From: a virus
Lineage: Duplodnaviria > Caudoviricetes
Reading direction: 5' to 3' (one strand)
Virus record (IMG/VR): IMGVR_UViG_3300036790_000129
Coordinates: 1 to 59,416 of that record
DNA length: 59,416 nucleotides
Each line of letters starts with the position of its first letter. Position 1 is the stretch's first letter. Position numbers and translations under genes: made by a program. A model generated the notes under the pieces. It did not search any database and was not told where the DNA came from. It was given only the letters and a program-made list of their open reading frames with translations. Shown piece by piece: positions 14,215 through 43,595 of this stretch.

Positions 14215-17200
14215 TCAGTGGAAGTCCGTTACCATGTCAAGCATGGGTGCCACGCGATCAAGCATCCGCTCACGCATCTGGTTGATGTTATCCAACCGGG
14301 TGCGCTTGTCCTGTGGCGACAAGGTGGTGGATGCATTGATGGCTTGTTCCATCGTACGCAACTCACCCATCTTGCTCGACACCGTATGCAGCTCGTTGCG
14401 ATATTGAAGTGCCGTGCGATTGTTCTGCATGACTTCCCTCGCGTCGTTGATGTGGCCCTGTTTTACGTAGGTACTGATCGTCTTGGCGGCGGCATCAGCA
14501 TCATGCTGGGCACTGTATACCTCATCAACATAACGATTGCGTGTATCACTGGCTGGCTTGTCGGCATTGACGATGTGCGCTAGCCCGGCCGTAACCGGGT
14601 TGCTGAACGGGCTGGCCGCTCGCGGTGGTGCATGACCCGTGGCACGCTGCATGGCATCGGCGAACTGAAGAGCGTACATGCCGATCGATGAGGTATAGCC
14701 TTGGATCAGATGTTGCAGGCGAACAGGTGAACGCAGGCTATCCGGCGCCCCTTCGGGCATGTGTCGCGCGATAGCTGTCACGGTAGGTGACGTGTTCATG
14801 CCCACTTGTGCGCCCGGCTGGAGCTCCTGTTCATGCTCGCTGACGATCGGGATCTTGCTTCCCAGTTGCTGTTTATTGGCAATGTCCTCGATCACTGGCA
14901 ATGCCACCCGTGGAATCGGATTCATGCCGAACATCTGATTGGCCACATTACCCATTGACTCGGCGAAGGTGCGCGCGGTGTCCTTTCCCTGCAGCACGCG
15001 CATCACGCGCTCAGGGATGGTGGCGGCAATCGCGCCTGCCTCGAACGGTTTGGCCAACGTGTAGTGCGTGCCGCCTGCGTAGAAGTGCCAATACAGATCC
15101 TTGGCTTCATCCGGCAACCGCTCGTAGTCCTTGTTCTGCTGGTTGTAGAGATTCAGCGCCAGCGTGGGCAACATCAGACTGATGCCCTTGAGGAAGAATG
15201 AGGTGACTGCGCGCTGGCGATTCATCGTCACGTCACGACCCATCATGCCGTCGTAGAGTCGGGTAAGGCCCTGAATGTGCGCATTCATGAATGGCGCACC
15301 ACGCATGACGTATTGCGCCAGCTTGCCATCACCGCGCTTCTGCCAGTTGAGGGTGTTCTGTCCCTGCCATGCGGCCTCGGCCATCGAGCCGCCACGATCG
15401 AGCGTGTGCTTGGCGATCGTCAGACGACTGGTCTGTTCACTCATCCAGCCGACATGCTTGTAGGCTTCCCAGAGTTTCTTGGGACTGTTGAGCAGGTTCC
15501 ACTTGTCGCCTTCCAGCTTGCTCATCAGATCACGCACTTCCTCGATCCGGTAATACTCATTGCCGTTGTAGCCGGCAATGCGCAGATCATTGAGAAAATG
15601 GCTATCAGTCAGCACGTCCTTGGCATTGCCTACGAGGTGCTTGAACATATTTGGATTCGTGCCCGTCTGCATCCATGACTGCATCATGTCCTTGAGGAAG
15701 ATCCGTGCCATGAAGCGAGGATCGAGCGTGGTGGCTACCGTATAGATGCGCTTGGCGCCACCCAGCAACGTATCCATCACCTTGCCGATGTCACCGATGC
15801 TCTGCAGGTTCGTGATCGAACGCAACAACAGTGGATCGGTGACGTGGTAGTAAATGTTCTTGCCGTTCTCCACTACCGATACGATGTCCGCGCCCACCGG
15901 CTTCTGTGGACGGAACATGGTGGTCAGCGTGTTCAGATCATCATCAGTCAGATTTGACTTGTCCACCTCGATACCAGCCTTGGCCAACTGGCCAATGGCT
16001 TCCTCGGCGGACATCTGCATCGCACGCATCGGGATCTTTGCGCGCTCCATGCCAATGCCATCCGTGAGAGCCACCACGCGGCGCATGGCTTCGTTGGAGT
16101 AAATCTTGTCAAGGATCGAGCTCGTGTTCTTGACGATGCTCTCGATCACCGGCTCGATCTTTTTCTGCGATCCCACCAGTTTCTTGGATGTGACTTTCTT
16201 GCCACTGAGCGTATTGGATGCACCGCGCCAGCTACTCGATTCATTCTCCTGCATCGAGCGGTAGAACGGCACGTACATGTTCTGTTTCCACTGGTCAGCC
16301 ACAGCCTTGGACATGCTGCCACGGTCAACGGCCAGATCCAGCAGCTGTTTGTTGAAGTTCTGCAGATCGGACAACACTTTCTTGAACTGCGGATACTTCT
16401 GATCCAGCGCCATCAGCTTGTCGATCTCAGGCTGTGTCAGCAGCTTTTCCTTCGACGTGCCATCAGCGTTGGTTTGCTTGATGAGTTCGTTCGCACGATG
16501 CGCGACAGCATAGCCCTCGAACAGGCGATCCAAGGGTTTGCCATCGGGCGTGCCCTTGTACAGCGGAGCCAGCATGTCGATGAAACCCTTGCGCCCGGCG
16601 ACCGACACGAAACTGCCGTCCTTGTATTCCGGAACACCATTCTTCAGTACGCCAGCCGTGATCTGTTCGTTATTGCGTGCCATCCAGTAGGACTTGTAGG
16701 CCGACTGCGCGGCATCGAGCAGCAGACCGCCGTTGGCGTGGCGCTCGTAGTTCTCGATCGACGCGCCAGCATCAATCGTTGACTGTTTCATTTCCAGCGC
16801 GGTGTCCCCGTTCTGGATGTTGTCGCGAAAGTCGCGCGTGACCTGTTGCAGACGATCCCATGGCGTCATGTCCAGCACAGAATGGTCGATCGTCTTGGCC
16901 AGAATGCGCTCATCCTCGGGGTCACCCTTGGCGGCATTGCGCACACTGAACCGGGTGTTTGCCGGCAGATTTTCTGAACTGTTCAGTTCATAATATCCCG
17001 GCCGTTCCTTGAAGGGCACGCCAGAAGCCTCAATTTGGGCCTTGGTGACGTTCTCCTTGCCGATGGCTACCCCTGCACGGCCCTCTTCCTGCGTGAAGCG
17101 GGCCAATGAGCGGATCGACTCGGGCGATGGATCAGCCAGCTTCTCGACACTGTTGACCACCCGGCCATCCAATACGCTGGACTGGAGGGTGGCGTGGAGA

Positions 17201-20200
17201 TCCCCGATGTCGAGCTCACGGCTGCCATCCCGGCGCAGGATCACAGTGCCTTCGCCAGCCGCCCCACGATAGGTCGAGGTGGCTGTGAAGTCCTTGCCGC
17301 TGAAGGTGGTTTGCGGCGACTCCAGCCCGCGATCATTGACGCGGCCCTCCACTACGTCACGATGCACGCGCGCCATCATGGTGGCGATGTCGCCCTCATT
17401 CCACTTCGGAGCCATGCCCATGCGGCGCATTGCGTCATGTACGAAAGCGACCACCTTCTGCATGATCGTGGGATTCTTGCCTGTCTCGGCGACCTTCGCC
17501 AGATACTCTTCAGCCAGATCGCGCCGAGCCTGTGCGTTTGGCTGCGCGCCATAGATTTTCTCGTAGAGCGCAGCGATCCGCTTGAAGTCCTTGGTGTCCT
17601 TCACGGAAGCGTGGATCTCATCGAGCAACTTCGGCAAGTCGCGCCCGAGCGTCTTGCTGCTGTGCAAACCGTAGTGGCCGATTGCCTCGTGCAACAGCAC
17701 GCGACCAGCGTCCTCCGGGTCAGTCAGTGAATGACTCATCAGGTAGACATGGCCATCATGGAACAAGCCAGCGGGATCTTCATCCTTGCCAAGGAAGTGA
17801 TCGAGATATGCCTGTACCGGTTTCGGCAATTCAGTACGATCACTGACCACGTGGATCGGTGGCGCACCCTTCCACGCCTTCGAGATCGCCATGACATGCT
17901 GCTGCACGGCGTCATGATGATCTTTCGCGGCCTGTGCTTTTTCTTCTTCATTGAGCTCGGGTGGAGTGGGCGGCTTTTCCTGACGGATATGCGCTTCAAT
18001 ATCGTTTTCACCGAAACGCACGATCTGTTCTGCGCGCGGGTACTTCTCGGTCATCGACGGCGGCATGGCAAGACGCTCTGCGTCCGTCATGTTCTGCCGC
18101 TCCTGCACGTTGTAAGCCTCGTTCTCGCCCGCAATTTTCATGTATTTGCTGGCCGCACGTCCCATCATCGACTGATAGTCCGTGAGTCCCTGCTTGCGGA
18201 TCATGTCGTTGATACGTTCAATGTGTGCTGAAATTTCTTCGTGCTGTTTCTCTTCATCTTTCGTCAACACACCATCACGGCCATCAGCGAATGTACCGTC
18301 ATTAAGATCATCGAGTTGATCTCGAAATCCTTGACGCATCGTAGTCAGACGCTGCTTCTGTTCCTTGAGTGGGCCAAGGAATTCCATCGGGCTACCACCC
18401 GTGGCGTGATCCTCCTCGCGCTGGATGTAATGCTGCGCCTCATGCAACAGGATCGACTGCACAGAGTGATCGCCTGTCTTGGGATACATTGACAGGTCAT
18501 GGAACATCATCGTGTTGGTTTCAGGATCGAACATGGCACCCGCTTCAGCCGGCATCCGTGGCTCGACCTTGACATGCACGTCATTGGCGATCTTCGGATA
18601 CGCCTCGTACAATGCCGGATGATCCAGTACATCGCCAAGCGGCACGCCTTTCTCGCTGTGCAGCCCGCGAAGATCCATCGCGCCCGGCTTCAAACGGCTG
18701 TCCTTGTCGTTGATCTCGAAGCGCCACTTGCTATCTGCGCCACGACTCCATCCAGTCATGCCATGGGTAAGCGCCTCCATTTCCTTGGCTGACTTGGGCT
18801 GTTCTTCACTCTCAATTTTTTTGGCGTAAGCCAGTGCGCCCTTGTCACCCGTTTTTGCCTTCTCGCCTGCAAACATCAGGCGCGGATTCGCCCTCTTGTC
18901 CTCTTCACCTTCACTGGAGAGGTCCTTGAGTTTGTCCTTGGTCGATTCATTCAACTTGTCGGCCAGTTTTTCCTTGACCTTATTTTTATTTTCCTCGGCA
19001 ATCTCTTGATCCGACAGGCCAATGCGGCGTTCACGATCTGGCGAGACCTTGGCAAGGTAGGATGTACCCACATCCTTGACCGGGATCGTGCCATGGACGC
19101 CCATGACCACGGCGACATGCTTGGCAGTCATGCCCGGCATCGCGTTGGCCAGATAACCGTCATAACCCGCATCGTGGACACGCTCCTCGAAATCGTCATG
19201 ATTCGCCGCATCGCTCACGATGTGATCCGGATCGGTACGCATGTCGTAGAGGTTATTGAGCTGCGTTTCGTAGGCGTGCGTACCTGCCACAGCGGATTCT
19301 TTCGGCGGAAGCTCGTTGCCTTCGCGCACGTAGAAAGCCGTCCTGCGACCCATGGCATCCGGGCCACGTCCGAAGTTGCCCGCACCGAATCGCTTACGTT
19401 CACCACCGGCCGATCCCGTGCCCGCTTCGCGCGGGTCGAGCTCAGTCAGACCTTCCTTGCTGGAATAGTGCACACCTGTCACACGAACAGGATGTGGACC
19501 ACCTTCACCCTCCTGAAAGAGCGGGGCATCGCTCTTTACATCAGGGATGCCGTTGGCTGCAGGTGCGCGTAATGGCCCTGTTCCTTTTTCCAGCGCGTGT
19601 ACAGGAATGCCATGTGCTCGCTGTCCTGATACGGATTGGGCTTGTCCGGATTCGCTGCCTGCCAGCGCCGAGTCAGACGTGCCAGCTCGATCTTGTAGGC
19701 TGGTACGTTCTTTTCCTTGCTGAACAGCTGATCCAGATCCTTCCTGAACCTCGCCTCGCGGGCTCGATCCGGCAACGTCAGCGTGTTTTTCGATGGGGTG
19801 GCCATTGATCTTGCTCCCAGCATAGCCGTCTATACGGCTAAAACTCTTATGGATGGCCGTTGCTTTGGCGGCCGGAATGTCGCCAGTGATTGTATCATCA
19901 TTCTGATTGTAGGTCAGGTTCGTATCATGTTTGGTATTGACGGCCTTTACCTTGTCATCCATGTCATCCATGTTGGCCGAACCCGCATCACCCTCAAACG
20001 GGACATTCTCCCGAAGCTTGAGCATTGGGGCGCCCGAGATCGGATGGGGTGGCACATCGGTAGCACCGCTATGGATGTAATCGGCGAATTTGGCACGTGA
20101 CATCATGACGATATCGTTCTTGCCGTTTGGCAGAAGCTGATGAACCATGCCCATCGGATATTGTTTCCCGTAGACACTCATCGCCTCACCCTTCGACTTG

Positions 20201-22974
20201 GCGCCCATGACCACCTTCATTTCATCAAAGGCACCCGTCTGCGGGTTGTGCTGCGTCAGCACGGCCACTGGGCGTGTGTCGTCGTGAGCATTCTTGGTCA
20301 GGAAAACATCCAGCGGCTCGCCATCCGCCCCGATCGTGCCCGGGATGCGACCGTAGTGGGCATCGATCATCTTGCGCGAGAACTTGTCCGAGGCATCCGG
20401 CTGACTCTTGCGGATCGAACCAGCCGGATTTTCGATGTCCACCGGCACGTCACCCTGATCGCTGGTCAGCAATACCTTGGCTACCGGATAGTGACCATAA
20501 GACTTCTCACCCGGCGTGACCGGGCGCCGCTCACTCTGCGGATGCTCGGCGGCATCGACCGCCGTAGCGTCGATGGTCTTGGCCGCATCCGGTGCATTCG
20601 GGTCGATGGTGACACGTCCGGTCGGCGAGATCGGCGCAGAGACACCAGCCTTGGCCAGTGCATCCGCGACCGGCTGCGCGCGAGCGGTTAGATTTTGCCC
20701 TTCGGCATCGACATTCCCAGCCCCTTCATGCCCGAGGACACTCCCAGTCCCGAGGCTTGACCCATGCCCTTCATCCCCATCTTGCTGCCCGTGGGGTTGT
20801 TCAGGTTTCCCAGCTTCGGCTTCGCTGCCAGCTTCGGCTTCATCCCCTTGGTCACTCCCTGCGACGGGCTTTTCTGGCCGAACTTCTTGTTCGGGGTGAG
20901 GAGTGGATTCTTGGTTGACATACGGCTCTCCCGGCTTGAGGGGCACAATGCCCGTTTTGTCGTAGACGTGACTGAACACGTTCGACGTGTATTGTGAAGT
21001 ATGACCACGAATGCCAAGACGGCCATCGGCCATACGATAGTAATGGATGCCGCCGGCCTGTAGAGACTGCTCCATCTTGGGATTAGGTGCATAGAACGCA
21101 TCGAACGAATCCGGGCGTGCGGCATGATCGCGCGCGTAGGCTTGTTCGTTCGGGATGCCATCCTTGTCGAAATCGGCATCGTACTTGTCGTGGATGTAAT
21201 CCGGCGCAACCTTGTTCTGGATCGTTTCATTAAGCGCCCGGTTGAATTGCAACTGGCTCGGCTGATCGTAAGCAGCCCATCGTGACAGGATATCGAGCTC
21301 CGGACGCGGCACGATCTTGTGCGCCGTCTCCATGCTGATGGCTGCGTTCTTGGCCAGCGCAATAGACTGGTTTTCCTTGCCAGTCAGTTCGGTGTATTTG
21401 TCGAACGCGGCATTCGTTGAGACTTCATTGGCATACGCATCACGCGCGATAGCCTCACCGGTCTTGGGATCGACGGGTGCCGGTCCGTTCTGGGTGGCCT
21501 TGAAGATCGCGGCATAGCGCGGATCTTCGACCTGCAACTGATCGTGTGTCTTGGCCATCTTGGCATTCGACACGGTAACACCATGGACGGCTGAATCGAC
21601 CATGGCATTGTCGATGTTGTTCGTCACCTGACTGAGCGTGTCGATCACATCCGCTGTGCGCTTGGCACCGGCATTGCCATCCGTCGCTGCCTTCTGGATG
21701 CCGTTGTAACGAATATAGGCGGTCTGATAATCCTCCTGTTCCTTACCGGCAAGGAATCCCGCCATGGCGGCACTGGAGGCCGTGTTCTGCCATAAACCCT
21801 TCCATGTAAAGGGCTCCTGCATGTTGTCCGGCATCGCGGCGTTGTTCATCTGCCGCACGACTTCAGAGCCTGCTGCGCCGGCTACACCACCCGTAAACAC
21901 GCGCATGGCCAATGGCCCGGCGATGCTCAAGGGCACCGTATTACCCAACCATGTGGATACGCCGGACATCACGCCGGCTTTCACGGCGGCCAGCGGGTCG
22001 CCGGTCTGCTGGTAGACCGCATCCTGTGCCTTGGACGCGTTCACCACAGCAGGAATCGAGGACAGACGTGCCGAAGTGGTCAGGCCATCCTTGAGGATGT
22101 CGAAACCACCGGCAAATCCTTCACGTGGCAACGTGGCTGTCAGCTTGGCCGCCGCTTCCTCTGGACCCATCAGTGACATTTCCGCCAACTGGCCGCCAGC
22201 CGAACCGGCAATCTGCATACCTGTACCGACAGCACCTGACTGATCAGCCTCGGCCTGTGATTCCTGATTTAACCGAGCCGAAAAGTCCTTCTGTGGCTGG
22301 ATCGCATTGCGATTCCACCAGTCATAGGCACTCGTGGTTGGCGTGTCACTAACCAGACTGGCGATCTTGTCATAGGCATAAGGTGCAGCTCCGGCCGCTT
22401 TGGCTACAACGGTGCCCACATCCGGGAGGATGCGATCGAACTGACCTGCTCCTGCACCAAGCGCGTTGTAACTGCGCACACCAATGTCCCTCATGACATC
22501 AAGGCCACTGGGCTGATCTGGATTGCCACCCAACGCAAGATCCGCCGCCGCCCACGTCGGATCAAGTGGCGACTTCTGGATCTTGTCGATCTTGTCGGCA
22601 CCCCATGCCTCACCAGCTTTAAGGTCGGCCGGAGCTTGATCAATGTTGGCTTGTCCCACGAATGGACGCACCAGATCATCGGCCGCACTGCCGGCGGCAT
22701 CATTGACAGCTTTCAGGCCCGACTTGATCTTGTCGCCGATACTGGGTTCGGCAAAATCCGCATCCGTGACAGGCTGCAGTTGGTCATCACTGGGTGCTGG
22801 TTCCGGGGCCGGGATCTCGCCGTTGGTCGTGGGATCTGGATTGTCTACGGGTGCCGGGGGTGCAGATAACACGGAGCCCTGCACGTTGACAAGGCTCGTG
22901 GGCGGTGTAGCGAAGTCCGCATCCGTGACAGGCTGCAAGCCATCAGGGAGCGACGACGGATCAGGAGTATCCAT
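14215..22974 (-). CDS. Giant virion-associated large polyvalent protein (PPase-like, ART-like, LPD23/zincin, second zincin, LPD38-like C-terminus)
   Basis: 2919 aa; HYGRIPGTIGADGEPLDVFL...FDEMKV; VHYS...GYDGY; TGWSRGADSKWRFEIND...LLHEAQH; LLHEAIGHYGL; DLYWHF...AKPFEAG. Confidence 0.75.
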   Translation of the reverse strand: MDTPDPSSLPDGLQPVTDADFATPPTSLVNVQGSVLSAPPAPVDNPDPTTNGEIPAPEPAPSDDQLQPVTDADFAEPSIGDKIKSGLKAVNDAAGSAADDLVRPFVGQANIDQAPADLKAGEAWGADKIDKIQKSPLDPTWAAADLALGGNPDQPSGLDVMRDIGVRSYNALGAGAGQFDRILPDVGTVVAKAAGAAPYAYDKIASLVSDTPTTSAYDWWNRNAIQPQKDFSARLNQESQAEADQSGAVGTGMQIAGSAGGQLAEMSLMGPEEAAAKLTATLPREGFAGGFDILKDGLTTSARLSSIPAVVNASKAQDAVYQQTGDPLAAVKAGVMSGVSTWLGNTVPLSIAGPLAMRVFTGGVAGAAGSEVVRQMNNAAMPDNMQEPFTWKGLWQNTASSAAMAGFLAGKEQEDYQTAYIRYNGIQKAATDGNAGAKRTADVIDTLSQVTNNIDNAMVDSAVHGVTVSNAKMAKTHDQLQVEDPRYAAIFKATQNGPAPVDPKTGEAIARDAYANEVSTNAAFDKYTELTGKENQSIALAKNAAISMETAHKIVPRPELDILSRWAAYDQPSQLQFNRALNETIQNKVAPDYIHDKYDADFDKDGIPNEQAYARDHAARPDSFDAFYAPNPKMEQSLQAGGIHYYRMADGRLGIRGHTSQYTSNVFSHVYDKTGIVPLKPGEPYVNQESTPHPEQEVRPEKPVAGSDQGDEAEAGSEAEAGKPEQPHGQQDGDEGHGSSLGTGSVLGHEGAGNVDAEGQNLTARAQPVADALAKAGVSAPISPTGRVTIDPNAPDAAKTIDATAVDAAEHPQSERRPVTPGEKSYGHYPVAKVLLTSDQGDVPVDIENPAGSIRKSQPDASDKFSRKMIDAHYGRIPGTIGADGEPLDVFLTKNAHDDTRPVAVLTQHNPQTGAFDEMKVVMGAKSKGEAMSVYGKQYPMGMVHQLLPNGKNDIVMMSRAKFADYIHSGATDVPPHPISGAPMLKLRENVPFEGDAGSANMDDMDDKVKAVNTKHDTNLTYNQNDDTITGDIPAAKATAIHKSFSRIDGYAGSKINGHPIEKHADVAGSSPRGEVQEGSGSAVQQGKERTSLQDRAGTSDSALAGSESGQAQSVSGQRAHGIPVHALEKGTGPLRAPAANGIPDVKSDAPLFQEGEGGPHPVRVTGVHYSSKEGLTELDPREAGTGSAGGERKRFGAGNFGRGPDAMGRRTAFYVREGNELPPKESAVAGTHAYETQLNNLYDMRTDPDHIVSDAANHDDFEERVHDAGYDGYLANAMPGMTAKHVAVVMGVHGTIPVKDVGTSYLAKVSPDRERRIGLSDQEIAEENKNKVKEKLADKLNESTKDKLKDLSSEGEEDKRANPRLMFAGEKAKTGDKGALAYAKKIESEEQPKSAKEMEALTHGMTGWSRGADSKWRFEINDKDSRLKPGAMDLRGLHSEKGVPLGDVLDHPALYEAYPKIANDVHVKVEPRMPAEAGAMFDPETNTMMFHDLSMYPKTGDHSVQSILLHEAQHYIQREEDHATGGSPMEFLGPLKEQKQRLTTMRQGFRDQLDDLNDGTFADGRDGVLTKDEEKQHEEISAHIERINDMIRKQGLTDYQSMMGRAASKYMKIAGENEAYNVQERQNMTDAERLAMPPSMTEKYPRAEQIVRFGENDIEAHIRQEKPPTPPELNEEEKAQAAKDHHDAVQQHVMAISKAWKGAPPIHVVSDRTELPKPVQAYLDHFLGKDEDPAGLFHDGHVYLMSHSLTDPEDAGRVLLHEAIGHYGLHSSKTLGRDLPKLLDEIHASVKDTKDFKRIAALYEKIYGAQPNAQARRDLAEEYLAKVAETGKNPTIMQKVVAFVHDAMRRMGMAPKWNEGDIATMMARVHRDVVEGRVNDRGLESPQTTFSGKDFTATSTYRGAAGEGTVILRRDGSRELDIGDLHATLQSSVLDGRVVNSVEKLADPSPESIRSLARFTQEEGRAGVAIGKENVTKAQIEASGVPFKERPGYYELNSSENLPANTRFSVRNAAKGDPEDERILAKTIDHSVLDMTPWDRLQQVTRDFRDNIQNGDTALEMKQSTIDAGASIENYERHANGGLLLDAAQSAYKSYWMARNNEQITAGVLKNGVPEYKDGSFVSVAGRKGFIDMLAPLYKGTPDGKPLDRLFEGYAVAHRANELIKQTNADGTSKEKLLTQPEIDKLMALDQKYPQFKKVLSDLQNFNKQLLDLAVDRGSMSKAVADQWKQNMYVPFYRSMQENESSSWRGASNTLSGKKVTSKKLVGSQKKIEPVIESIVKNTSSILDKIYSNEAMRRVVALTDGIGMERAKIPMRAMQMSAEEAIGQLAKAGIEVDKSNLTDDDLNTLTTMFRPQKPVGADIVSVVENGKNIYYHVTDPLLLRSITNLQSIGDIGKVMDTLLGGAKRIYTVATTLDPRFMARIFLKDMMQSWMQTGTNPNMFKHLVGNAKDVLTDSHFLNDLRIAGYNGNEYYRIEEVRDLMSKLEGDKWNLLNSPKKLWEAYKHVGWMSEQTSRLTIAKHTLDRGGSMAEAAWQGQNTLNWQKRGDGKLAQYVMRGAPFMNAHIQGLTRLYDGMMGRDVTMNRQRAVTSFFLKGISLMLPTLALNLYNQQNKDYERLPDEAKDLYWHFYAGGTHYTLAKPFEAGAIAATIPERVMRVLQGKDTARTFAESMGNVANQMFGMNPIPRVALPVIEDIANKQQLGSKIPIVSEHEQELQPGAQVGMNTSPTVTAIARHMPEGAPDSLRSPVRLQHLIQGYTSSIGMYALQFADAMQRATGHAPPRAASPFSNPVTAGLAHIVNADKPASDTRNRYVDEVYSAQHDADAAAKTISTYVKQGHINDAREVMQNNRTALQYRNELHTVSSKMGELRTMEQAINASTTLSPQDKRTRLDNINQMRERMLDRVAPMLDMVTDFH

Positions 22975-40713: not shown

Positions 40714-41604
40714 TCAGCTGGCCGAGTTCCACTTGACGATACGGGCATTGGCCGCGTCCGCCGTGGAGGCGCCATGCACCAGACCATAACCGCCAAGGTA
40801 ATACCACGCGATGCCGCGCGAACGGCCGAAGTCGGTGGGGATCTTGCCTCGGATCTCCTCGGGGATGACCATGGCCTCGGCCACCGTGTCCTCGCCAAAG
40901 AAGAAACACCAGTCGGACACACCACCGGTCCATGGCACCGGGTTACGGAAGGTGTAGCCGGAAGCATTCACCGCACCGCCGTGCGCGATGGCCGTCTGCT
41001 CGATGAAGCGGATACCCTCGTAGCGGCCGATCTCGCCATTGGCGATCAGCTGGAAGCCCGTTTCCACGTACTGGTGGATCGACTCCAGCGAATTCTTGAA
41101 CGTGCGCAGCGTGGTCGGCCACGCGATGGCGTAGTAGTCATCATCCACATACGGTGGGATGTTGGCTTCCTTCATCAGGTCCGAAATCGCCTTCACGTGC
41201 GAGTTGTTCATCGCGATCGCGTTGGTAATGCCGGTCGCGCCGACACTGGAGGTGACCGAGGTGGTGGAGTTGCCACCGGTCGGAGCCACCTGCAGCACGG
41301 TCGAGTTGAACTGTGCCCATGCCGCGCCGTCCAGCGTTTCCTTCGCATCCACCTTCAGCACCTTGTGGATGATCTCGGTGACCGGGTGCTTGGACATGTC
41401 ATCCAGCTTGCCGGTGTACGGCACGCTGTTGCCGTACTCGGTGATCGTCAGGCTGGCCTGACCCACCGTGAAGTTGGTGGACGGCATATCCACATCTTCA
41501 CTGATCTGGCCACCGCCGTTGGCGACACGCGAGTAAGTGTTCCAGTTGAACAACTGGCCGCTGTGCAGACCTTTCTCGGTCGCATCCTTGGCATCGCAAA
41601 ATTG
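40714..41604 (-). CDS. Major capsid protein, exon 2 (N4-gp56-like); spliced product 331 aa
   Basis: Begins QFCDAKD...; ITEYGNSVPYTGKL, GEIGRYEGIRFIEQT, IPTDFGRSRGIAWY. Confidence 0.9.
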   Translation of the reverse strand, partial: QFCDAKDATEKGLHSGQLFNWNTYSRVANGGGQISEDVDMPSTNFTVGQASLTITEYGNSVPYTGKLDDMSKHPVTEIIHKVLKVDAKETLDGAAWAQFNSTVLQVAPTGGNSTTSVTSSVGATGITNAIAMNNSHVKAISDLMKEANIPPYVDDDYYAIAWPTTLRTFKNSLESIHQYVETGFQLIANGEIGRYEGIRFIEQTAIAHGGAVNASGYTFRNPVPWTGGVSDWCFFFGEDTVAEAMVIPEEIRGKIPTDFGRSRGIAWYYLGGYGLVHGASTADAANARIVKWNSAS

Positions 41605-42316
41605 TGAGTTGTTACAGTGACTTACGTCACCGGGCTGACCTTGCGAGGGCTAGCCTCTGCACGTCGCCGTGCAGGCCGGACTATATCATCAGACAAAACC
41701 AAAGCCTTGCCTGCGCAACGTGTAGTCTCTGAGGGTTCTATGAGCAAATCACGTTCGATAAAGAACTGCTTTTGCAACTCGGCGAATTCAGGAGTGTTAG
41801 CGTAAAGGTGACTTGTCGTGTTGCCACCTTTCGGAAATTTCTGCACAAAGTTGATTGCCTTGAGCATCACTTCCGCCTGTCCTCGTTTCGTCGTCAAATA
41901 AGGCAAGATCTCTGTCAGAACCTTTTTTGCCGAACCTTGGCTATGTACCACAATTGCCAGTTGATCCTTGTAATGGGCTTTTCTACGACGATTGATGTTG
42001 TAGAAAAAGACACATCCAAGTCCTTCCAGAATTCGGGATATTTTGGCAATCATTGCCACATCGGTATTGATGACGCGAAACTTTGGTCGCCAATAAGGCT
42101 TTCCGTTGGTATTCGCTTTCACCACCTGCCAATCGAGATTCCCTTCTCCATCTACGATCCCCGCTAGCCAAGCATAGTCTTCCCTGCTGATTGACCGCAC
42201 CGTCAGATTTTCACACTGTGGTACTGACGGATACTCGGTTATTCCAGCATTTAGTTGCGTTTTCATTCCGCCAATTACACACGATCTTTAGGATCGTGTC
42301 AAGAACCCGAAGGTCA
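41605..42316 (-). mobile_element. Group I intron (712 nt) in the major capsid gene
   Basis: P AAATGCTGGAA (42252-42242), Q AATCAGCAGGG (42192-42182), R TCAGAGACTACA (41732-41721), S ATGATATAGTCC (41689-41678); P3 CGCAAC/GTTGCG; P1 TTCCGT/GCGGAA with U-G; P10 AATTG/CAATT. Confidence 0.92.
41622..42266 (-). CDS. Intron-encoded single-motif LAGLIDADG homing endonuclease
   Basis: WLAGIVDGEG; NTD; ILPYLTTKRGQA. Confidence 0.92.
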   Translation of the reverse strand: MKTQLNAGITEYPSVPQCENLTVRSISREDYAWLAGIVDGEGNLDWQVVKANTNGKPYWRPKFRVINTDVAMIAKISRILEGLGCVFFYNINRRRKAHYKDQLAIVVHSQGSAKKVLTEILPYLTTKRGQAEVMLKAINFVQKFPKGGNTTSHLYANTPEFAELQKQFFIERDLLIEPSETTRCAGKALVLSDDIVRPARRRAEASPRKVSPVT

Positions 42317-42421
42317 ACGGAACTTTACGGTGGGCAAGAGCGCCATGCGCAGCACATTGCTGAGCTGGTCAGCGTACATATAGCCACCCAAAGTATTGAC
42401 GCTCCATACTTGACCTGACAT
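42317..42421 (-). CDS. Major capsid protein, exon 1 (MSGQVWSVNTLGGYMYADQLSNVLRMALLPTVKFR)
   Basis: GGAG RBS after scaffold gene; joins exon 2 in frame as KFR|QFCD. Confidence 0.88.
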
Positions 42422-42440
42422 AGCACTTTCTCCGGTTGAA

Positions 42441-43595
42441 TCACTGTGGATTGAGGCGACGCCCGAAGTTGCGATGTGACTGCATCATGGCCACGGCCTG
42501 TGCATTGGACATGGCTTCATCATCGGTCGTCGTTTGTATAGCACCACTGGCCGTCACGCTGGAGGGCAGGCCGCGCTTCTGCTCAACGATGTTGCCGCGT
42601 GGGCCACCGAAGAACTGCTGTTTGCCCCAGTCACAGGCATCGCGGGCCACATCGACAGCACGGCGGTCACGATTCTCGGGGAGCGCCACCAGCTGCTTGA
42701 AGTATTCAAACGTGGCAACGCGCGCGACTTCGTTCTTGCAGATATCGGGGTATTCCCGAAGGGCCATCGTGTCGATCTGGGCGTTGATTGCCTGAATGCG
42801 TGGATTGACGGGTATAGAGGTGGGTGTGGTGGCGACGGGGGCGGCCTTGGCGACCGCAGCACGTACCCGGGTTTCGATGTCCTCGGCCGACAGGGTTTCC
42901 CCTTTGGCTCGCCGCAGGATCTCAAGGATCGCGGCTTGGGCATCGTTTTCATCACCCGAATAAATCTGCTTGGCCAAGCGTGTGGCCAGTCCCGTCAATT
43001 CCTGTTCCGATGCGCCAGAACCGGGGAGGTTCCGATCCGCTGGAGCGGCGGATCTTGTGGCTGGGTCAGCTTGACCCGCAGGCTTGGCCTGCCGTAGTTC
43101 CTCTCGCACGCGGACAGAATCGGCCAGCTCACGCTGCAACCGGTTGATGGTGATCTTGTCCTGTGCCATCCCCTCGTCTTGCTCACGACGGCGCAGATAC
43201 CCTTCAACACCACCTTCCCGGTCGATGTCCGCTTGGGACACCCGAATCTCGCCTCCTGCGACGGGGATGTTGACATAGCTCGCAACGGCTTGTCCAGTGG
43301 GTGTCGTGGGCGTGCCCGGTGAAGTGGGCGCCGTAGGTGCGGTATAGGTTTCGCCGCGCGCCTCGGCCTCCATCCGCGCGATACGCTCAGGATCATTCTC
43401 GGCCTGACCCTGCGCTGTCTCGCGCTCGCGGATCTTGTCCGCCTTGATAAACATCCCTTTGCGTGCTGCAAACGGGTCAATCTTCACCGGGTGCAGTTCG
43501 TCACCCTTGGGTACGACGGCCGATGCACCGTTTGTGAGATCCCCGCGATCGAGCGCGGCCTGCGTGGTCTGAATGTCCTGCTTGACGCTGCTCAT
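42441..43595 (-). CDS. Scaffolding protein
   Basis: Helical protein between portal and MCP; GGGAG RBS before MSSVKQD. Confidence 0.7.
   Translation of the reverse strand: MSSVKQDIQTTQAALDRGDLTNGASAVVPKGDELHPVKIDPFAARKGMFIKADKIRERETAQGQAENDPERIARMEAEARGETYTAPTAPTSPGTPTTPTGQAVASYVNIPVAGGEIRVSQADIDREGGVEGYLRRREQDEGMAQDKITINRLQRELADSVRVREELRQAKPAGQADPATRSAAPADRNLPGSGASEQELTGLATRLAKQIYSGDENDAQAAILEILRRAKGETLSAEDIETRVRAAVAKAAPVATTPTSIPVNPRIQAINAQIDTMALREYPDICKNEVARVATFEYFKQLVALPENRDRRAVDVARDACDWGKQQFFGGPRGNIVEQKRGLPSSVTASGAIQTTTDDEAMSNAQAVAMMQSHRNFGRRLNPQ

Follow-up and report, generated by a model that had tools for sequence, protein, structure and literature searches.

The DNA analysed here, which we refer to as the window, is a complete IMG/VR record of 59,416 bases from an uncultivated soil phage of the N4-type podophages. 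Its minus strand carries the major capsid gene, present as a single copy in the contig and divided into two exons by what sequence and fold identify as a group I intron with a homing endonuclease frame inside it (Table 1). The capsid protein shares ~50% identity with those of Vibrio podophages and of the Escherichia phages PTXU04, Pondi and Bas95. The gene starts at 42421, and codon 35 (CGT) ends at 42317 to be followed directly by TGA; an intein is ruled out, as this stop codon stands straight behind codon 35. The exon-2 frame restarts at 41604 with CAA TTT TGC GAT, and joining 42317 to 41604 yields ...PTVKFR/QFCDAKD... in frame (the slash marks the junction), which can be aligned without gaps to three annotated capsid proteins encoded by uninterrupted phage genes.

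We compared this junction with related viral loci, using the best 80 of 180 relatives. In 77 of these 80 loci codons 1–35 are joined directly to the rest of the gene, in two the upstream DNA is missing, and one (L060) carries an intron itself, as a 751-nt insertion at the same point as that of the window. In all 77 intronless relatives among these best 80 the motif (K/R)FRQF runs across the junction without a gap. With the in-frame KFR/QFCD join and 77/77 intronless relatives uninterrupted at this point, the splice junction lies where an earlier note on this DNA, made from the sequence alone, had placed it, and recomputation reproduced all the sequence statements of that note.

All junctions shifted by up to 6 nt were tried, and VKFRQFCD came back with just two of them, one with U42317 as the last exon-1 base and A41605 as the last intron base, the other with G42318 and C41606 in these places. 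Neither leaves a terminal G, and the U-G wobble at the point of 5′ cleavage belongs to the U42317/A41605 option. Canonical junctions of the U...G type were sought over a wider range and gave 104 open-frame combinations within 45/60 nt, none of which restores the conserved junction. Read by hand, splicing after G41615 would place UAA straight behind exon 1, and splicing after G41597 would shift the frame, G41597 being missing among the open-frame junctions. Translation without splicing was rejected as well, the first start in the exon-2 frame being a TTG at 41553, the use of which would cost 52 conserved residues. As the contig holds only one capsid gene, capsid synthesis depends on the 42317/41604 junction. 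The major capsid protein of such phages is needed in hundreds of copies per virion. The earlier suggestion that an essential gene hangs on a non-canonical junction thus stands as far as the single capsid copy in the contig and the terminal A carry it.

Table 1. Features of the interrupted capsid gene and its intron, in window coordinates; helix strands are given as RNA.
Feature	Position	Strand	Basis or remark
Capsid exon 1 (35 codons, MSGQVW...PTVKFR, ends TTCCGT)	42317..42421	−	first 35 residues identical or nearly identical to intronless relatives
Capsid exon 2 (QFCDAKD... to stop)	40714..41604	−	phrog_1357 major head protein, E 2.3e-15
Group I intron, 712 nt, starts UGA (in-frame stop for exon 1), ends ...GUAACAACUCA	41605..42316	−	between codons 35 and 36
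ORF of 214 codons, putative single-motif LAGLIDADG homing endonuclease, from AUG inside the P1 guide through P9.2	41622..42266	−	open frame, motif WLAGIVDGEG
P1 5′ strand GUUCCGU, U42317 last exon base	42317..42323	−	7 pairs with guide
P1 3′ strand, internal guide GCGGAAU	42265..42271	−	U42317-G42271 wobble at 5′ splice site
P1-loop insertion, hairpins ACC-UUCG-GGU and ACACGAUC-CUAAA-GAUCGUGU	42279..42314	−	read from sequence
P10 guide strand AAUUG, immediately 5′ of P1 guide	42272..42276	−	pairs with CAAUU
P10 exon-2 strand CAAUU	41600..41604	−	5 contiguous pairs
P3 CGCAAC / GUUGCG	42254..42259 / 41714..41719	−	5/6 pairs change on both sides; 94.4% paired (12 introns)
P4 UGCUG/CAGCA, P5 ACCG/CGGU, P5a CCGUCAG/CUGACGG	42185..42249	−	P4 invariant in 12/12; P5 and P5a covary
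P6 GGG/CCC and P6a CUAUG/CAUAG, around the endonuclease domain	41733..42184	−	P6a 48% paired in A2 (poor alignment); by eye in each relative
P7 5′ strand GAGACUA, A41728 bulged, G41727 guanosine-binding	41723..41729	−	G-C in 12/12 (columns 756/806)
P7 3′ strand UAGUCC, C41679 pairs with G41727	41678..41683	−	alignment A2
P8 hairpin	41692..41711	−	7/8 pairs change on both sides
P9 hairpin, GCGA loop	41657..41674	−	100% paired; 5/7 pairs change on both sides
P9.1 GGCU/AGCC and P9.2 GUGAC-GUAA-GUCAC	41617..41655	−	canonical in window; weakly supported in A2, lengths differ
J7/9 GG, possible P9.0 with U41607 and C41606	41676..41677	−	G-C and G-U in window
GUAACA motif, family-wide, 4–5 nt ahead of last base	41610..41615	−	sequence of relatives
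Omega, the 3′-terminal intron base: A in the RNA, T in the + strand DNA	41605	−	G in 11/11 same-site relatives (column 908 of A2)

Fold of the intron and its endonuclease frame

With a GC content of 0.44–0.50 against 0.60–0.64 in its flanks, the intron is foreign by composition. A search with the Rfam model RF00028 matched positions 41657–41857 of the minus strand at 36 bits (E = 2.5e-7), short of the gathering score of 50; up to E 0.01, no other Rfam hit was found anywhere in the window. The model failed to bridge the ORF of ~450 nt in P6 and misplaced the 5′ half of the intron; the intron of L060 scored 22.9 bits with it. The fold was counted on an alignment of the window intron with 11 homologous introns (alignment A2; 12 introns, 74 pairs), in which 83.2% of the cells are paired, compared to 69.4% after shuffling (0 of 500 shuffles reached as high) and to 36–42% with the pairing partners slid. 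Changes on both sides were observed for 41 of the 74 pairs over the 12 introns of A2, with P3, P5, P5a, P8 and P9 covarying. In the window all helices are canonical, and P2 is absent. On the combined evidence of the RF00028 match, at 36 bits below the gathering score, and of a fold that covaries over 12 introns, the intron belongs to group I, as had been proposed.

The catalytic centre was described earlier as retaining its normal guanosine-binding pair, and G41727-C41679 in P7 is indeed unchanged. The closing pair of P7 covaries, being A-U in eight and G-C in four of the 12 introns, and the U-G wobble at the 5′ splice site is found in all 12 (columns 15/89). Likewise, the proposed P10 is a clean helix, joining 42276..42272 with 41604..41600; its 5 bp lie within a family range of 1–7 and are surpassed only in L176 (7). 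The P9.0 that the earlier note drew from GG and TC fared less evenly, as the pairing is possible in the window but does not covary in the family. G-U plus A-U can form in 6 of the 11 relatives and a G-C beside the last base in the window only, and P9.0 was rejected as a conserved helix, since 66.7% of its cells are paired and none of its pairs varies in both partners.

The P1 loop of the window carries an insertion of 45 nt, compared to 8–22 nt in ten relatives; L171 alone has one of similar length, unrelated in sequence. In all 12 introns the exon-1 frame runs into an in-frame stop within the first five intron codons; the intron opens with this stop in the window (UGA, 42314–42316) and in seven relatives (UAA). 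Such an early stop would keep ribosomes out of the ribozyme.

The endonuclease frame reads through P6′, P7, P3′, P8, P9, P9.1 and P9.2 and thereby through nearly the whole intron. Its start AUG is made by a U-to-G change present in none of the 11 relatives, whose frames use other start codons, often an AUG in P4, and stop 10–40 nt past the start of P7. This conserved P4 AUG is in frame in several relatives and out of frame in the window. Residues 28–164 of the encoded protein match phrog_5046 (E 7e-15), the label of which, 'HNH endonuclease', is at odds with the LAGLIDADG motif, and phmmer aligned residues ~27–143 with I-CvuI (E 2.4e-4), I-CreI and chains of the I-OnuI type. Neither the endonuclease nor the two capsid exons matched Pfam at E 0.01. 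Relatives of the endonuclease protein were sought by pattern in viral contigs, where none turned up, and in deposited phages, where a search gave only four weak hits. In two of the relatives, L176 (66-775) and L181 (intron of 562 nt), the endonuclease frames are shortened to 152 and 133 codons, respectively, with the ribozyme intact and a large deletion in L181; introns in the decay phase of the homing cycle usually look like this.

Introns at the same site and the terminal base

Relatives were sought in viral contigs and in metagenome contigs by pattern on the guide and on P3–P4. L168, L174 and L180, in which no 3′ tail was recognisable by pattern, were dropped, as were L173 and L178, which over the compared stretches duplicate L171 and L177, respectively. 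This yielded 11 distinct introns at TTCCGT/CAR TT of homologous capsid genes (L148, L150/L060, L169, L170, L171, L172, L175, L176, L177, L179 and L181). The window intron shares with them the insertion point, the guide GGCGGAA, the core from P3 to P9, the tail of GTAACA type and a LAGLIDADG gene in P6. It differs in that it ends in A, in that its 3′ half (CAGAGACUA...UAGUCCGG) is like one branch and its 5′ half like another, and in that the 45-nt P1-loop insertion and the ORF start at the guide-strand AUG are absent from the relatives.

With 12 distinct introns of one family set against 77 intronless relatives, homing has recurred at the KFR/QF junction of N4-type capsid genes. The introns at this site show two covarying versions of P7, CAGAGRCUA...AGUCC and CAACGACUA...AGUCU. 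A co-conversion tract was considered and set aside: the first 12 bases of exon 2 equal those of the intron-bearing L177 and show 3 differences from the nearest intronless relative, L005, but the signal is not firm, as the overall divergence is similar.

In the relatives the intron tail mostly consists of GTAACA, four further nucleotides and G, directly before the Q codon; five nucleotides intervene in L150 and L169, and the motif reads TTAACA in L169 and L176 and GTAATA in L148. The tail of the window reads GTAACA, ACTC and A, with the spacing seen in most relatives, and the ACUC before the terminal A differs from every one of them. The 77/77 homologues and the exhaustive junction test fix a terminal base other than G, and the U-G wobble conserved in 12/12 introns goes with A41605, in agreement with the earlier note; in the homologous introns the base at this place is G in all 11 same-site relatives. 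As these relatives end in G without exception, the alignment shows the A as a derived and unusual state within a G-ending family, which would have arisen most simply by one G-to-A change at the last position. The lost omega-G weakens the description of the intron as a typical group I member, not the claim that it works as a group I intron.

An A-ending junction elsewhere was sought in viral contigs by means of a 31-nt pattern that left the final base free (N), which gave no match; nor did a 31-nt pattern of the intron core find a match in prokaryote genomes, or blastn one among deposited phages. The 3′ half of the window intron resembles a branch of the wider family with tails seemingly ending in ...CG, as read without exon-based junctions.

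The stretch 41350–42550 was found to be identical in a contig of 58,874 bases, made by a second assembler from the soil metagenome run that is the probable source, with a mean word depth of 26.9; the second assembly probably draws on the same reads and is not an independent sampling. This run was the only public one found to contain the stretch, with no RNA data set among the matches. No variant contig, other letters or other joints were found at this stretch in the second assembly, whose contigs can hide minority variants. The second assembly argues against an assembly slip.

Probable splicing at a terminal adenosine

We consider it rather probable, judging from sequence and comparison, that the window holds a working mobile intron with a natural omega-A, the 3′ splice site of which is held by the 5-bp P10 together with a P9.0 of G-C and G-U. 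Since the guanosine pocket is unchanged, the first step should be ordinary, with a free guanosine in the G41727-C41679 site attacking after U42317, held by the U-G wobble of P1. In the second step the 3′ splice site would be set by pairing and not by the terminal base: P10, stacked on the P1 guide, and the two-pair P9.0 would bring the bond between A41605 and C41604 to the active site, and exon 1 would be joined to C41604 although A41605 fits the guanosine pocket poorly.

In group I introns the terminal G acts as ligand in the second step of catalysis. The Tetrahymena intron ends in G, and its A variant, made in the laboratory, ligates exons very poorly unless the binding pair is altered as well; the A of the window, by contrast, is a natural state. 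The window segment from J8/7 to P7, GAUAUAGUCC GG, and the tail ACUC-N are similar to the Tetrahymena sequence, including a P9.0 formed from the two bases before the last. Because terminal-G mutants behave in this way, exon ligation in the window intron is probably slower than in its G-ending relatives, or less complete, and would still suffice for the phage to multiply. The earlier proposal that a slow second step could time or limit capsid synthesis gains no support from the present comparison.

Comparing the window with the relatives, we found no compensating change in P7, J6/7 or J8/7, so that the pocket should still prefer G. The GG of J7/9 was considered as a compensation, since in all 11 same-site relatives the second base there is A. 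This candidate was rejected because many introns of the wider family have GG as well, with tails that appear, as read without exon-based junctions, to end in ...CG. Nor does the 5-bp P10 represent a special adaptation, since a P10 of at least 5 bp occurs in four G-ending relatives too. A further point against splicing at the A comes from a 2026 library study of IStron introns, in which all the alternative 3′ sites in use had a terminal G.

The contig is otherwise intact, with long ORFs along it. One of these is an open frame of 2,919 codons at 14215–22974 on the minus strand, which in size is reminiscent of the virion RNA polymerase of N4-like phages. From the depth of ~27, the end-to-end assembly and the intactness of the rest, the genotype has most likely been making capsids and hence splices at A.

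We regard it as unlikely that the intron is crippled instead, the G-to-A change blocking ligation wholly or nearly so and the contig representing a defective, declining or helper-dependent genotype, the capsid protein of which might come, for example, from co-infecting relatives that are 90–95% identical. The preservation of the terminal G in 11/11 same-site relatives speaks for strong selection on it, and the binding pocket is unchanged; very close intronless relatives with 90–95% identity in exon 2 do exist, though in other contigs, and the decaying endonuclease genes of L176 and L181 show that such elements do decay. However, a lethal change in the sole capsid gene should not be the consensus at a depth of ~27 in a contig assembled end to end. 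The rest of intron and contig is intact, and no co-resident variant contig was found, the limit being that contigs can hide one.

Decidedly improbable appears a further reading, in which the terminal A would be kept by selection and not merely tolerated. Slow ligation would then allow the output of the most abundant late protein to be tuned, or the A would suppress side reactions of the terminal G (hydrolysis at the 3′ site, circle formation, reverse splicing), or the intron's own LAGLIDADG protein, whose frame unusually spans the ribozyme from the P1 guide to P9.2, would assist as a maturase. We saw no mark of selection for A, as opposed to a tolerated or harmful A, in the binding pocket or elsewhere.

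There is very little to recommend splicing from the normal 5′ site to one of the upstream canonical bases G41635, G41644 or G41650, which would put 10, 13 or 15 extra residues inside KFR/QF: the exon-2 frame is open for 15 codons into the intron (41605–41649, through P9.2 and part of P9.1), so that the three sites give in-frame insertions and full-length open frames, but an insertion at this point occurs in 0/77 homologues, the three G bases are located within or beside P9.1 and upstream of P9.2, the bases following them do not pair with the P10 guide, and they are 30–45 nt away, whereas the alternative sites of the IStron study were no more than 10 nt from the normal one. Equally remote is a sequence error, in which the true RNA-strand base at 41605 would be G and the A an artefact of assembly or consensus; a single contig is concerned and one base decides everything, but the two different assemblies agree at this word depth with no other letters, the context CTCACAATT is not a homopolymer, and the four bases before the A are likewise unlike those of every relative, so that the tail is not a relative's copy with one miscall.

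If the intron works with its terminal A, as we favour, it shows how far base pairing alone, through P10 and P9.0, can define a 3′ splice site. Its eleven G-ending sisters are natural controls and, as they share the site, rates would be directly comparable by a one-base swap. Should the A prove to be selected, the intron would be without precedent in phages, and in protein-coding genes, as a working group I intron that lacks the terminal G; should the intron be dead, the contig would have caught, in a rare glimpse, a phage shortly after a mobile intron had turned lethal. Annotation pipelines that demand a terminal G would misplace the junction, and the capsid gene would be called broken or split in two.

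Known counterparts and the wider intron family

Group I introns almost always end in G, the terminal G being near-universal and one of two such nucleotides. The intron Cbu.L1917 of Coxiella burnetii reportedly ends in A and self-splices. This 23S rRNA intron is said, in the title of its description, to lack 'the canonical Omega G' (Raghavan et al. 2007, J Bacteriol 189:6572). It is, like the window intron, a natural group I intron without terminal G; it comes from a different lineage and interrupts a chromosomal rRNA gene of a bacterium, whereas the window intron lies in a phage protein gene, carries a putative homing endonuclease gene and has G-ending sisters at its own site. Given this precedent, the terminal A is a rare variant and not a new kind. 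Our literature search returned no other natural group I intron with a terminal base other than G; the omega sign is not searchable, and absence from print is not claimed.

Introns in phage capsid genes are known and efficiently spliced in mycobacteriophage LittleE and in lactococcal phage Tuc2009, for which splicing was shown by RT-PCR and N-terminal sequencing, and the LittleE intron ends in G and has a putative homing endonuclease, according to the portion of the article at hand (PMC3706429). As far as that portion goes, LittleE resembles the window in having an intron in the major capsid gene of a tailed phage and differs in the G end, the phage group, the insertion site and the type of endonuclease.

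Beyond the capsid site, the loci L085–L164 and L182–L216 make up a large family of phage group I introns with CAGAGRCUA...UGAUGAUAKAGUCC, the P4 pair AUGCUGGAA...AAUCAGCAGG and often a GUAACA tail. Members of this family occur in many different genes, tRNA-like contexts included, and one sequence is repeated in ~30 jumbo-phage contigs.
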